NCBI GenBank assembly: GCA_051294905.1
Contig: CM119371.1
Location: 25,856,001 to 25,920,000 of the forward strand
Origin: Botryllus schlosseri
Lineage: Eukaryota
Reading direction: 5' to 3'
DNA length: 64,000 nt
Shown here: positions 35,472-52,482 of the stretch, piece after piece
How the letters are laid out: every line of letters begins with the position of its first letter
Numbering within the stretch: the first letter of the stretch is position 1
Made by a program: the position numbers and the translations under genes
Notes under the pieces: model-generated
Database searches by the model: none
Seen by the model: only the letters and a program-made list of their open reading frames with translations
What the model was told of the DNA's origin: nothing

Positions 35472-35484
35472 GGCCCCTGCGCAA
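34118..35484 (+). mobile_element. U6-carrying unit, left part, interrupted by Dada dimer
   Basis: Matches 31932-33298 at offset 2186. Confidence 0.85.
35415..35484 (+). pseudogene. U6: U6 snRNA gene 5' part (nt 1-70), disrupted by Dada insertion
   Basis: Matches U6 up to GCGCAA, then switches to the transposon end; the U6 3' remainder is not found at the other side of the dimer. Confidence 0.95.
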
Positions 35485-35939
35485 AGGATACCTGCGGATG
35501 TTCTCTGTTGGGTTGCTAATTTTGCTTGACTGCACACGCGACCATGGACTTCAAAACGACTAGGTTGTCCTGCCGATATCTATACCAGGACGCTGTCCCA
35601 ACCAGACTGGGACCACTAGATAATTTTCAAATTATTATTTTCTAAATTCGATTGGAATTTGAACTACAGCTACACACCTTCACCAGATTAGGCTCGATTT
35701 AGAATGATAACTACATAGTTTTCGTAATTAGATTAGAATTACATCTACAATTCATCGGAATTAGATTAGAATTACACTTATAGCTACACATATACGTGTG
35801 TACAGGAAGCTTGGCTCGTTTCGCACTAGCAGGTCCTGTAGCATTGTCAGGAAGCCAGAAATTAGACTAGACTAGATTGAAAACTAGAACATGACCACAT
35901 TTACCAAACAGTTTCTGCCCACATGATGCTTGCCTACCC

Positions 35940-36240
35940 TACTATATGAAGCATTTCAACCTGGTTTTAGATCAACCACTTCCGGGATCACACGAAATAA
36001 GACGCTATACCCCATCACGAATTTCAACCTAGTGCGTTTTGCATCAACCATTTCTGGGATCACGCAGAGGCTGCCCATGATTCTCTCCTTTCCTGCTAGA
36101 CAAAGCATTCCTAACTAGTGCGCTTTCGGATCAACCATTTCTGGGATTACACAGTTGCTGCCTATCCGACCCCTTCCTTCCCTAATAGATGAAGCACTAC
36201 AACCTGGCTTTAGATCAACCATTTCTGGGATCACACGAAC
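35940..36240. repeat. Degenerate ~75-90-bp tandem repeat near the other Dada end (4 copies; also 44440-44740)
   Basis: Recurring core ATCAACCA(T/C)TTC(T/C)GGGAT(C/T)AC. Confidence 0.8.
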
Positions 36241-49900: not shown

Positions 49901-52476
49901 CTTACGATCAAGCCGTTTCTTCAATTCAAGGGCTTCCTTCATCTCGGGGAACAAGGAAGCGTACTGCTTGAAAGAGAACTTATTCAAGCCCAAATCACTG
50001 GCATTCTTCCCAAGACACGTTTCCATTTGGAACTCTCGGACCAGGTGAACAGAGTAGCCCAGGGCATTTTCCAGTATCCACCTGAAAGATTTTCCCTCGA
50101 ATTTTCCAAACTGCATTCTGTACTGACCAATTACATGTCTCTGGTCTGATACATTGCCCCCTGCGTCAGCGACAGCTTTCATGGCATTTCTTTTCACCTC
50201 TTGAGGTGGGAGGCACATACCAGTTGATTGCGTCCTTTGAGCAAAGAACGTCTTAGCCTCCTTGGAATCAGCGAGGCGTAATTCTCCGTTCGGTATTCTC
50301 GTAAATCTGGGTAACATCTTGACAGATTATACCCCGCAAGTATATCCAATCCAATCCAATGTAACAGTAAATCCAATCCAATGTATCCGTATAAGTAATA
50401 ATGATAATATATCCAATCCACGTTTTCCAATCAGTTGAGTAGGTTATAAATAGGCTTTTACGCTGAGAAAAAATAAATCGCTCATCAGAAATCAAAATGT
50501 TTAGGCCTTCTACATGAGAACATGTGTGAAAAGATATACCGGTACTCTTCAACACCAACGCATACGGCGGTTACAGAACGAACACAGCGGTAAATTTCAC
50601 AAACACAGAAATGAATGAGATGCGCATAAACACACGACATACTCGTAAGAGAGCTGAGAAACCATTACTAGGATACAAAGTGAACTACACAGATGCTCAC
50701 AGCTGAAGAATACTATAAACATTGTTAACGTAATACACCAATCAACATGACAGCAGTAAGAGATGGTGAACTATGCCTGGAATTTATAGAGAGGCTTACT
50801 GATTGCTTCTTTCTGTTATCAGAAGAAGATTGGAGCCTTTTGAAAAAAGCAAAAATAGCTGAAATGCTAGCAGAGTTCATTCCAAACCATCGGAGAAAGA
50901 CGTGATTCAACGCATTACGGAGAAAGAGATAGGTCTGCATTGTCGCCGAATAACTAGAAAACTTGAAATTATCAAGTCGCTTGTTTACGATTTGATCAAA
51001 ATGTTTGCGAGCCCGAAGGGTAATGACACGCATGGAGTTCCCTTCTTTCGGAATGGAATTATGTCCTGCTCCTGCCATGATCGGACAATACACTGGTGAG
51101 CTCATCGGTGTGGAGTAACTATACAGCCAATCTGGAAATCCTTTGTTTCCGTTATTGGATGAAAATGGGCAAGCGATTCTGTCCAATCGGGATGAAAGCC
51201 AGGAAATGGAAGACGAAGGCATTGGCCTGACAGAGTGTGTGACTGTTGGCGATGGAGATATTCTGACAAATGATACCGTTTTGGTCCCGCTTGAAGATAG
51301 AAGCACAAGTTCATCCTCGGACCAAGTGGTCAGCAATGACGAACCTGTTGATAACGAGATAACCCCCGCTGAAGCTTCAGTAAGGCCTGATGACATTCCA
51401 CGAAATGAAAAAGCTTCAAAAATGTGCATTGACACGTGACTCGGAGCAAAATTTACGAGTCGATTTCAAGTCATTAAGTAAGCAGAGCACAGGCTTCTTT
51501 CTTGTGGAAATGTAAGGTGTAATTCCCCATTTAGTCGTCTAGTAGATGCAGACATCGCCAAAAATAGGCAAAGGAATCCAAGCAGCTACGGTAGTCTAAA
51601 CCTACAAAACATGCCTGTAAATATATACCGGTGTTAATTTTCACTAAGTCAACTAAACACATCTTTTATTTCATTATACCTGCCTGGCCTGCCGATGTTG
51701 ATTAGGCTTTTGATTACCTTTAACTGTTAGCTATATCCTATGTTACATTGAACAGTACATCCCACTATACTCGTATTTTACAAACTATCATCAAATACTT
51801 AGTTCAGATTGTTAGAAAAAGCCAGAGAACGCCTTACGAATATATTCACCGGTACATAACCTCCGGTAGTCAAAACTGGTCTTTTACCATTGCTGTGATG
51901 TTTGGTAAGATGGGCGGCGTCACGTTTGTCTAATGAACACTCAAAACGCTTCATTATTAATGCACCTACCACTACTTCAACAGTGCAATGCAGCCTAAAT
52001 ACGAGCCTAGAGACGAAGTTTCTACTGGCCTTAACTTGTCACAGATACAGTAATCTAATAATGTCTAACATGCTGATGCTGTCTGTCTTCAACTATACTG
52101 TACCATTTTTCTACTACAATACTTTCTTTACTGCCTTGCATTGCCTAACAGTATCACCACACAAGACACAAGAAACAAGACTCTCGGCGTCAAAATGCGA
52201 ATACAATACTCAGAATCAGATACAGGCGAGAGTGAGTACGGCAAGCACAATTAGAAAAGCTTCTGGCTTCTGATTGGTTGTCTCTAGTGCGCGGAAAGAT
52301 ACAGTCCCGGACGAGAAAATCCGAACAATTAGAAGAGCTTCTGGCTTCTGATTGGTTGTCTGTAGTGAGCAGAAAGATACAGCCCCGGACGAGAACATCC
52401 GAACAATTAGAAGAGCTTCTGGCTTCTGATTGGCCGCTGAAATCAGACAGCAGCAGAGAAGATCGGCAGGTCATCA
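43984..52476 (-). mobile_element. Autonomous Dada-type transposon, copy 2 (head-to-tail tandem)
   Basis: Repeat of copy 1 at offset 8499 with identical ORF translations; separated from copy 1 by the hexamer TCAGGT (43978-43983) and followed by TCAGGT (52477-52482). Confidence 0.92.
46559..50317 (-). CDS. Dada-family DDE transposase, second identical copy
   Basis: Translation identical to 38060-41818 in the ORF track. Confidence 0.92.
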   Translation of the reverse strand: MLPRFTRIPNGELRLADSKEAKTFFAQRTQSTGMCLPPQEVKRNAMKAVADAGGNVSDQRHVIGQYRMQFGKFEGKSFRWILENALGYSVHLVREFQMETCLGKNASDLGLNKFSFKQYASLFPEMKEALELKKRLDRKPKIPVRKKPTIKSTATDKACSSKSLKTVTTQSSKTASSSSVMAPEDMPSDDDAAICSVADAVEEAQTSSGTPSQKSPALCCCSATLSDCVLPKGWRESLPISDHAWISKAIFKTNVKTAKAEMDFSRVVKLWWHPPQASLICTGVPRPSRYFAQALFLWMPRKLWKCKLTCIKPACQKELTSAGIYKKVRQVVDVDGYYNMATEYLECTSCGIKVAAWNNAILQQLDIGHRLQFPALLTYRYACDVRVIRALRERTLGNSSTRLFNTLSEQHTEKFYQNVLHYITDCGYSKEAYEKGMLATCPQFTQPPEFKPVPTAQWLLTVYVQDILSRLDEIKSSITSTFGSIIKMDSTKKVTKKLVGEAQNTCAWATNVGNEHGQVLMSVLTCAEGNGLAHMAAGLTKRYTDAEVCPPEVLYVDRGCCGSEHTHLRKLFKEWPNLIIRLDVWHCMRRFARGCTTESHQLYAEFMARLSQCFFVLSEEDWSLLRKAKRAEMLAEHISNPSEKDVIRRLSKREISLHCRRTTRDPATLRSLVYNLLKIFASSRGNDTLGVPLLDSRRIWDIWENEQKHLGCIKDPENVSLYTQTGTLVKGGVTLPVYRCARGSTSLESFHLHLNRFIPGQCASAAHFQAYLLEGLYRWNKDRAANAIAADSSNRLRSYSSLLSKAVHSLGMKTLGTELCPAPAEMGKYTGELIGVEYLYRQTGTPLLPLPDADDEDAREMLSKHDDSLEDEGVDLTEDMTICDTSILATDINFAEPEHTAANESSDRVVSNTEPDDMISKAESTVQGSVGPNNVPGYEKVSALADCLLTHRDCTGCLSEAEAAHIITLWNDLLPYDKQAITFRPMYRKGNPGGRFKSAKPQKCTTPGVVATQKCFVGSSSGPAQRPDCNRYVEETISRLCDVYPSMKSYGSKGNRWSCVGSAYKNIRRCVLNNRAVMTESRIQLPELNQKTILDWYKKQQTRMENDVLKQGLPVQSQPATVETVPPPKEKPATLPTAAFQQKYIYILPRNTTATAKVRSATNPTESPVPATTQHYRKRRAEEEATGSACRRKYKPRAGPSTCSKCKKPKTADTHKTYYGNSLCLATATVSHAVWLEALKAKGYGPRAKKRE

Positions 52477-52482
52477 TCAGGT

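Follow-up and report, generated by a model that had tools for sequence, protein, structure and literature searches.

A Dada-U6 transposon dimer carrying a foreign hexamer in Botryllus schlosseri, and a tentative end-targeting account of Dada insertion

Insertions of Dada transposons can have their target hexamer replaced on one or both sides, as reported by Kojima and Jurka in 2013 and by Kojima in 2022, who suggested that the flank is transposed together with the element (PMC3706591, PMC8869645). The replacement has stood unexplained since 2013, and the main text of both papers contains no proposal of a circle. Foreign hexamers persist on both sides of published Dada copies across fish species, and one-ended transposition with mismatched flanks has been described for Dada-tL and Dada-U6. 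Among bacterial insertion sequences, ISCth4 of the IS256 family follows a copy-out/paste-in route in which junctions with a 6-bp spacer integrate best, the spacer being discarded and an ordinary target-site duplication (TSD) made (PMC7780238, PMC3942029). IS30 targets inverted repeats (IRs), with a spacer equal in length to the stagger, sequence conversion and IRL-IRR junctions only (PMC9333248). Here, we describe a Dada-U6 dimer and propose, as a serious but tentative possibility, that this DDE transposon uses end-targeting of the IS30/IS911 kind, starting from an end-N6-end junction, and that U6 imitates an end of the element itself. The hexamer phenomenon itself is already known, and the mechanism is not proven by this locus alone.

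The analysed DNA, hereafter the window, is a 64,000-nt stretch of the B. schlosseri assembly GCA_051294905.1 (contig CM119371.1, 25,856,001-25,920,000, forward strand); coordinates are positions within it, and all hexamer observations in this species come from its copies. A 2 x 8,499-bp autonomous dimer lies within an array of U6-bearing mini-elements, with the following features.

31084-31183, unstranded: assembly gap of 100 N that hides where the mini-element array ends on its far (5′) outer side
31184-31925, minus: mini-element copy A, truncated by the gap, 3′ (AGG) end at 31925
31926-31931, minus: mini A/B junction hexamer, CGCCAG (CTGGCG in element sense)
31932-34111, minus: mini-element copy B, complete, 2,180 bp, non-autonomous, Dada-ended
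32551-32556, plus: CGACAT in mini copy B, the empty version of the dimer's right-junction site
33229-33335, plus: intact U6 gene inside mini copy B
34112-34117, minus: mini B/C junction hexamer, CGCCAG (CTGGCG in element sense)
34118-35484, minus: mini copy C, interrupted, with a second empty site and a U6 gene of which the 5′ part is present
34737-34742: second empty site, CGACAT, within mini copy C
35415-35484, plus: 5′ part of the U6 gene in mini copy C
35479-35484, plus: U6 target hexamer GCGCAA, target-derived, adjoining autonomous copy 1 at its 3′ (AGG) end; the known Dada-U6 site
35485-43977, minus: autonomous Dada-U6 copy 1, 8,493 bp
35499-35507 and 43955-43963: 9-bp sub-terminal repeats (SIRs) at the 3′ end and 5′ end of copy 1
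38060-41818, minus: intron-less transposase ORF, 1,252 aa, PF20499
43978-43983, plus: end-to-end junction hexamer TCAGGT, where the copy 1 5′ end meets the copy 2 3′ end
43984-52476, minus: autonomous copy 2, ORF at 46559-50317
52477-52482, plus: TCAGGT at the copy 2 5′ end, in place of the empty-site CGACAT
52483-54038, minus: mini-element remainder, starting 742 bp ahead of the U6 slot, 3′ (AGG) end at 54038
52497-52505: weak SIR look-alike, in register, in the mini-element remainder
53156-53262, plus: intact U6 gene in the mini-element remainder
54039-54044, minus: outer hexamer GTGCGC (GCGCAC in element sense), target-derived or carried, in a U6-target-like context at the 3′ end of the mini array

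The dimer represents a new family of Dada-U6 elements, a kind of transposon already known. It shares with described Dada-U6 elements (PMC3706591, PMC8869645) the U6 site, with insertion at GCGCAA/GCGAAA (here the left junction at 35484/35485), 9-bp SIRs at equal distance around a 6-bp slot, a size within 4.7-11 kb, tandem copies, one non-U6 flank and the usual opposite orientation, the ORF lying on the minus strand and U6 on the plus. It differs in that its 5′-end hexamer, TCAGGT, has no relation to any U6 allele, the flank that is not U6 lies at the 5′ end, the ORF is free of introns, the ends carry imperfect inverted repeats of ~25 bp (terminal in copy 1) and the target gene sits within a Dada-ended mini-element, whose initial ~440 bp in copy B are 76-94% like the 5′ end of the autonomous element.

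The transposase has the Dada-U6 hallmarks: a DDE triad (D489-D557-E748) with a DxxH motif at 583-586 (D583xxH586), an N-terminal CCCC (C310/315/347/350) and a C-terminal CCHC starting at C1203. Among 7,999 candidates scored, 366 homologues were found at E<=0.001, and the best 120 of these 366 were all PF20499. The protein is young and apparently intact, and the two autonomous copies show 0 differences across 8,499 bp. An AlphaFold model of residues 225-850 (pLDDT 91) has a predicted IS256-like transposase fold: compared with 48,161 chains it matched ISCth4 (6xg8) at rank 1 (Z 12.2, rmsd 3.7, 269 aligned), with the next hit at Z 8.9 and with Hermes, P and piggyBac at Z 8.3, 8.2 and 6.1, and Foldseek returned just three matches at E<=0.001, all ISCth4 (E 3e-6). 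The fold search thereby strengthens the distant relation between Dada and IS256 that a sequence-only reading of this DNA had noted. The likeness of the predicted fold nevertheless leaves the mechanism unfixed, because Muta1, a relative of IS256, excises and then reinserts with TSDs of the ordinary kind.

The same reading had pointed to a circle-based or recombinase-like mechanism. "Recombinase-like" holds as a description of the outcome and fails for the enzyme: the element's sole long ORF has a DDE/RNase H-like fold and motifs, and is a DDE transposase rather than a tyrosine or serine recombinase. The integrase of Tn916 is a tyrosine recombinase. The coupling sequences of Tn916 (PMC12229494) resemble the Dada hexamer in being a short foreign core that moves with the element, with replication clearing the heteroduplex, although the two differ in that Tn916 uses an integrase and the window's protein is an RNase H-fold DDE enzyme.

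All six hexamers listed in the sequence-only reading are present where it placed them. The position of the hexamer slot is dictated by geometry and not chosen by the analyst, because a 9-bp SIR, 14 nt, the hexamer, 14 nt and an inverted SIR recur at all three end-to-end junctions; autonomous elements and mini-elements alike have the SIR 14 nt in from each tip, with one mismatch at the autonomous 3′ end. TCAGGT differs from the U6 slot GCGCAA at 5/6 positions and from the empty right-hand site CGACAT at 4/6. Matching neither, it came with the element. Target polymorphism as its source was ruled out by the two identical empty sites (at 32551 and 34737) in mini copies that differ by a single indel in 1,555 bp. 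Each of the 35 occurrences of TCAGGT in the window was checked for a source site, and SIR arms surround it at the two junctions alone. Near 30978 there is a match of 9 bases, probably by chance.

A core that travels with the element is borne out for TCAGGT and for the Dada family, but it is not new, having already been published. The further assertion that there is no true TSD was overstated: perfect 6-bp direct repeats border both copy 2 (TCAGGT) and mini copy B (CGCCAG). A TSD of 6-7 bp flanking each side is the expectation for Dada-U6, from which published members often depart; the outer flanks of the dimer differ, but they are non-adjacent sites, so matching outer hexamers are not expected under any mechanism. 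The right flank is mini-element spacer and not the U6 3′ half, so that either 742 bp is duplicated or 1,444 bp of array is missing, and the right breakpoint coincides with the edge of the slot, with a 1-nt microhomology. Because the N gap (31084-31183) swallows the mini array's far end, no insertion in the window retains both original outer flanks. The polarity of what is seen is a foreign hexamer at the 5′ end and a target-type one at the 3′ end.

For end-targeting we envisage the following steps. The 3′ (AGG) end would act as donor, its 3′-OH attacking 6 nt past a bound SIR arm. Were that arm the element's own 5′ end, the product would be a circle or tandem junction with the old 5′ flank as spacer (TCAGGT, or CTGGCG in the mini-element); were it U6, as a mimic of the 5′ end, the product would be U6-GCGCAA-3′ end. 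With the spacer equal in length to the target stagger (6), a second strand transfer would not be needed on the other side, which strand exchange and host repair could seal. The spacer would then be retained at the 5′ end and sometimes also converted onto the 3′ side, with double-ended normal insertion and a true TSD as a minor outcome. The window's dimer would represent one end-to-end event, and an additional cut, at the slot's outer edge, may have produced the 1,444-bp deletion.

This IS30/IS911 branch is needed because a circle integrating in the plain IS256/ISCth4 manner loses its spacer and would not on its own leave the hexamer in the flank. At the dimer, the spacer does equal one flank (TCAGGT being the copy 2 5′ flank), a picture that a shared TSD would also give; but where IS256-type integration yields spacer loss and a target-derived TSD, the foreign hexamer here stays in the flank at 52477-52482. 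No circle or free junction was observed in the window, where, as in any assembly, tandem and circle junctions look alike. ISCth4 (PMC7780238, PMC3942029) resembles the element in having the closest solved fold, a DxxH-type DDE enzyme and an end-to-end junction with a flank-derived spacer; it differs in spacers of 6-8 bp that are lost on integration, a TSD of 8 bp and a target that is not gene-specific, and circles are not known for Dada. The likeness to IR-targeted insertion by IS30/IS911 and to (IS30)2 dimers (PMC9333248) extends to a spacer equal to the stagger, insertion in fixed orientation beside an end or a site resembling one, head-to-tail dimers and conversion of the junction sequence, although the transposase families differ, IS30 has a 2-bp spacer and the hosts are bacterial, making this a resemblance of outcome and not membership.

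The foreignness of TCAGGT to both adjoining sites, the right breakpoint at the slot edge and a polarity the same as in Dada-tA and Dada-tY argue for end-targeting, as do the dimer junction's need for transposase, the zebrafish hexamer tallies, the ISCth4-like predicted fold, the IS30 precedent and a metagenomic relative (L035); an ordinary junction in a metagenomic relative (L005), a target-like duplication in Dada-tY and the 3′-end non-U6 flanks of the published figure argue against it. The right junction also has an in-register SIR look-alike, which is no more than suggestive: 62/4,314 mini positions score equally well for the pre-defined 9-mer, 16/4,314 for a stretch picked afterwards and 844/4,314 over the entire 23 nt.

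Published copies were tallied by hand from rows in the supplements of PMC3706591 and PMC8869645. The "TSD replacement" of Dada-tA and Dada-tY likewise exchanges the target hexamer for a family-specific foreign one on one or both sides, but there monomers lie between both halves of the target gene, whereas the window holds a dimer with a deletion. Across 6 Dada-tA copies and 9 tRNA copies of Dada-tY, the target hexamer occupies the element 5′ end in 0/15 and the 3′ end in 4/15, a polarity (4 vs 0) that is not significant alone (p=0.125). A foreign hexamer stands on at least one side in all 15, and replacement on both sides is the commonest outcome (11/15), which under end-targeting would require extra conversion steps. 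Away from tRNA sites, a single Dada-tY copy shows a target-like duplication of 6 bp with 2 nt in addition. Zebrafish Dada-U6/U6N1 hexamers are identical in 8/29 two-sided copies. Twenty-four of these copies have U6-type hexamers left and right, and among them the left/right allele at position 4 is A/C in 14, C/A in 1, A/A in 7 and C/C in 2 (left-right association odds ratio 1.0; McNemar p=0.001, overstated in that the rows contain identical lines, possibly array duplicates). Outside this table lie five one-sided rows and five two-sided rows (four with a non-U6 3′ flank, one with an aberrant hexamer), the latter all with unequal hexamers. In the published Dada-U6 figure, every flank that is clearly not U6 adjoins the 3′ end, against the 5′ end in the window.

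Metagenomes yielded 131 confirmed transposase relatives, of which 80 were kept; no relatives were found in viral contigs (81 candidates aligned) or prokaryote genomes (37 aligned). An Rfam scan of all 80 loci gave one U6 match, the 60 of 80 scanned for tRNAs gave none, no locus among the 80 had both element ends or terminal overlaps, and the element-end pattern had 0 matches in the metagenome contigs. The SIR-geometry scan of the 80 returned 120 SIR-like sites and two informative loci, both with the window's slot spacing. L005 has ordinary GCGCAA followed by the U6 3′ half. In L035 the relative's 3′ end is joined across GCGCAA to a non-U6 arm bearing an in-register SIR, an arm that may be the element's own end. 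A wrongly chosen element tip was ruled out by the identical geometry in these two loci.

The window could also record ordinary cut-and-paste with true TSDs and later rearrangement, which we consider unlikely. Copies would insert beside an older copy's 5′ end, duplicating its flank as the TSD; a tandem multimer would move by its outer ends, bringing internal hexamers from an earlier site; and a further copy would be excised and repaired with a deletion, setting TCAGGT against mini spacer. The direct repeats around copy 2 and mini copy B, the non-adjacent outer flanks and the one-ended transposition and mismatched flanks of Dada-tL and Dada-U6 all favour this route, as does the confinement of every foreign hexamer in the window, save 52477-52482, to internal junctions. 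It requires, however, several events and an unseen third copy, and accounts neither for published monomers with a two-sided foreign hexamer in otherwise intact tRNA genes nor for the zebrafish left/right bias, which runs one way. That the first dimer arose by unequal crossover was ruled out: the monomer, GCGCAA-E-TCAGGT, has no flanking repeat for it, and so the dimer junction needs transposase.

A linear, piggyBac-like cut-and-paste appears more doubtful still. Excision would leave 6-nt 5′ overhangs of old flanks, with no circle required, and after strand transfer each overhang would either be trimmed, giving a true TSD, or be ligated over the gap of 6 nt, where repair or replication would fix it as a carried hexamer. 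In its favour, Li et al. reportedly described in 2013 the mutation of non-canonical piggyBac sites, and two-sided replacement and the one-base Dada-tA chimeras GCGCAT and GCGCAG fit heteroduplex repair. As may occur in Dada, piggyBac leaves with flank-derived overhangs of its TSD length, but that flap is dispensable in vitro, and piggyBac differs in its TTAA target and hairpin chemistry (PMC7351741). The fold, moreover, is much nearer ISCth4 than piggyBac (Z 12.2 vs 6.1); each side would independently and permanently lose the foreign hexamer, yet both-sided persistence is seen across fish species; and the route gives no reason for U6 to mimic one end or for the 5′ side never to be target-type (0/15). 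An assembly artefact, with the dimer or its right junction a mis-join in a collapsed repeat, would suit the 100% identity of the copies over 8,499 bp and the adjoining 100-N gap but is very improbable, given the exact SIR-14-6 geometry at all junctions, the lack of TCAGGT in SIR context elsewhere in the window and comparable anomalies in the literature on further Dada families.

A use of Dada for site-specific gene delivery has been proposed, and the window supplies an intron-less, apparently intact transposase together with a small natural mini-element; since the hexamers differ from the target at 5/6 positions, a marked-flank test would be easy to read. We hold with less confidence than end-targeting itself, as a possible general picture, that Dada is an animal DDE transposon retaining the bacterial copy-out/paste-in cycle, combining end-targeting, a U6 or tRNA mimic of the recipient end and conservative exchange around a 6-bp core; its gene specificity would stem from that mimicry, and target choice, tandem arrays and "TSD replacement" would be one reaction. 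If end-targeting from a junction is true, a eukaryotic superfamily would be tied to the chemistry of IS30/IS256 and its sequence specificity accounted for.

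Self-comparison of the window revealed 2,186-bp units arrayed over 31184-54038 and split by two 8,499-bp repeats, with U6 genes (identified with Rfam) at three points:

35485-43983, ORF on the minus strand: autonomous repeat, copy 1
43984-52482, ORF on the minus strand: autonomous repeat, copy 2, head-to-tail with copy 1 and with 0 differences from it
33229: intact U6 gene
53156: intact U6 gene
35484: third U6 gene, interrupted

Each large repeat encodes a 1,252-residue protein on the minus strand, with PF20499 and with the DDE triad, DxxH motif and pair of zinc fingers reported for Dada (PMC3706591); a homologue search returned many animal proteins that are around 50% identical to it. 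In its insertion site, its orientation and its 9-bp sub-terminal repeats (SIRs) the autonomous element matches Dada-U6, the DDE transposons that target U6 genes, and it represents a new family of this kind. The 2.2-kb unit, whose ends are related, is a Dada-ended, non-autonomous element containing U6 (the mini-element). The mini-element at 31932-34111 holds an intact copy of its own family's target, and the autonomous dimer sits inside one such copy. The element tips (35485-35514 and 52447-52476) are imperfectly inverted copies of each other over about 25 bp, exceeding the 9-bp SIR; the 2013 description reports no terminal inverted repeats for Dada (PMC3706591). Two to three sub-terminal tandem repeats of about 78 bp at the 5′ end (43748-43934 and 31975-32149) are common to the autonomous and mini-elements and are possible transposase-binding sites. 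Upstream of the ORF, each large repeat also contains part of a related Dada transposase gene, inverted and frameshifted (42269-42925 and 50768-51424, plus strand; 48–66% protein identity to residues ~600-945, ~72% at the DNA level), whose RNA could be antisense to the transposase message or form a hairpin with it. A separate C-terminal Dada transposase fragment lies at 59918-60343 on the minus strand (47% identity to residues 1097-1252). Elsewhere in the window, an ORF at 24016-24507 on the plus strand encoding part of a caspase domain (PF00656, E 5e-8) is probably a host exon, and palindromic fold-back repeats of 200–500 bp (26126-26644, 63093-63301 and 63767-63998) are probably MITE-like elements.

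All six hexamers that abut the element tips are real and as the sequence-only reading gave them, and at the three end-to-end junctions they occupy a fixed slot in the order SIR, 14 nt, hexamer, 14 nt, inverted SIR. The right-hand site of the dimer occurs empty twice, in copies one indel apart in 1,555 bp, with CGACAT in the slot; the filled version reads TCAGGT, and the right-hand break coincides with the slot edge. As TCAGGT differs from CGACAT at four of six bases and from the U6 hexamer GCGCAA at five of six, it was brought by the element, bearing out for this hexamer the proposal that the core travels. The accompanying claim that there is no true target-site duplication (TSD) was overstated: perfect 6-bp direct repeats surround each of copy 2 and mini-element copy B, the mini array runs at its far end into an N gap, and the outer flanks of the dimer come from non-adjacent sites. 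The right flank is mini-element spacer, 742 bp ahead of the U6 slot, rather than the U6 3′ half, and 1,444 bp of the array is absent there; the outer flanks thus stem from two separate sites, and no match between them is required. GCGCAC, at the outer end of the mini array, is probably target-derived, judging from its U6-target-like context. The right flank also carries, at 52497-52520, a weak in-register SIR look-alike and a short stretch resembling the mini-element 3′ end at a 6-nt offset. At 30978-30986, some 100 bp to the left of the gap, nine bases match the 5′ tip plus hexamer without an in-register SIR, probably by chance.

A carried core has been published before for other Dada families: in Dada-tA, TAGCAT is replaced by GCGCAA 'by an unknown mechanism', and mismatched flanks are ascribed to one-ended transposition (Kojima & Jurka 2013, PMC3706591). 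We tallied hexamers by hand from published rows, including supplements S2–S4 of that paper. Identical, target-derived hexamers on both sides, whose predominance the sequence-only reading said would tell against it, do not predominate in these families: the two sides are identical in 8 of 29 two-sided zebrafish Dada-U6/U6N1 copies, and the target hexamer is found at the 5′ end in none of 15 Dada-tA and Dada-tY tRNA copies, whereas 4 of 15 have it at the 3′ end (p=0.125 when taken by itself). By family, the 5′ end carries GCGCAA (four) or one-base variants (two) in the six Dada-tA copies and foreign hexamers in all nine Dada-tY tRNA copies, with foreign and target 3′ hexamers numbering five and one, and six and three, respectively; the tenth Dada-tY copy, which lies outside tRNA genes, shows 2 nt in addition to a target-like duplication. 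The polarity in the window agrees with this pattern. In the 24 zebrafish copies whose two hexamers are both of U6 type, the alleles at position 4 (3′ end/5′ end) are A/C in 14, C/A in 1, A/A in 7 and C/C in 2; left and right alleles show no association (odds ratio 1.0) and differ in one direction (p=0.001, which bounds the strength from above, as array duplicates may be among the rows), a pattern that recombination shuffling true TSDs would not produce. The sole two-sided Capitella copy, with GCGCAA at both sides, is uninformative.

Among 80 metagenome loci with relatives of the transposase, two reach an element end, both with identical slot spacing. In L005 the 5′ end is followed by GCGCAA and the U6 3′ half; in L035 (9055-9106) GCGCAA links the 3′ end to an arm other than U6, which resembles a Dada 5′ end and has its SIR in register, and the arrangement may represent a junction within a tandem or a circle. 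Neither tells mechanisms apart.

A predicted model of transposase residues 225-850 (pLDDT 91.3) ranked ISCth4 first among 48,161 chains (Z 12.2, rmsd 3.7, 269 aligned), ahead of retroviral integrases (≤8.9), Hermes (8.3), P (8.2) and piggyBac (6.1), and Foldseek concurs. ISCth4 is an IS256-family copy-out/paste-in transposase with flank-derived junction spacers of 6–8 bp, of which 6 bp integrated best, and its integration ends in clean 8-bp TSDs (PMC7780238); a plain circle therefore does not by itself account for the retained core. The fold match must also not be over-read, since ordinary TSDs accompany the excision and reinsertion of Muta1, which is IS256-related (PMC5225508). IS30 is a nearer precedent: the stagger equals the spacer length, the junction attacks beside another end by single-strand transfer with sequence conversion afterwards, and junctions are head-to-tail only (PMC9333248). 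The Tn916 coupling sequence (PMC12229494) is alike in outcome only, because the enzyme class differs. Some eukaryotic MULEs reportedly form circles (PMC3942029), and circles have been proposed for KolobokP (PMC9587614); the main texts of both Dada papers (Kojima & Jurka 2013; Kojima 2022) lack the term 'circular', and the literature searched, outside which most subscription journals fall, yielded no circle or end-targeting mechanism for Dada.

Our best reading, held tentatively at somewhat under even chances, is end-targeting from a junction. The 3′ (AGG) end would be the donor and would attack 6 nt past a bound SIR arm. If the arm belongs to the 5′ end of the element itself, the product would be a junction, in a circle or a dimer, whose spacer is the 5′ flank; U6, bearing an in-register SIR, would be attacked likewise. 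Strand exchange and repair would close the opposite side; the spacer would stay at the 5′ end and the 3′ side would often be converted. The reading is weakest in explaining how often both sides are replaced and how the right junction arose, where the SIR look-alike is weak. Orthodox cut-and-paste of a tandem multimer, with excision and deletion, would explain the window but leaves the published monomers unexplained, and we regard it as rather unlikely. A linear element carrying its 6-nt overhangs along, on the pattern of piggyBac (PMC7351741), seems to us more doubtful still. Li et al. 2013 reportedly describe mutation of non-canonical piggyBac sites. Mis-assembly we consider highly improbable.

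A circle for Dada is offered here as a hypothesis. To the published carried core this analysis adds a clean foreign marker, a 5′/3′ polarity across families and the structural match to ISCth4, as well as a model on which a marked-flank assay can decide.
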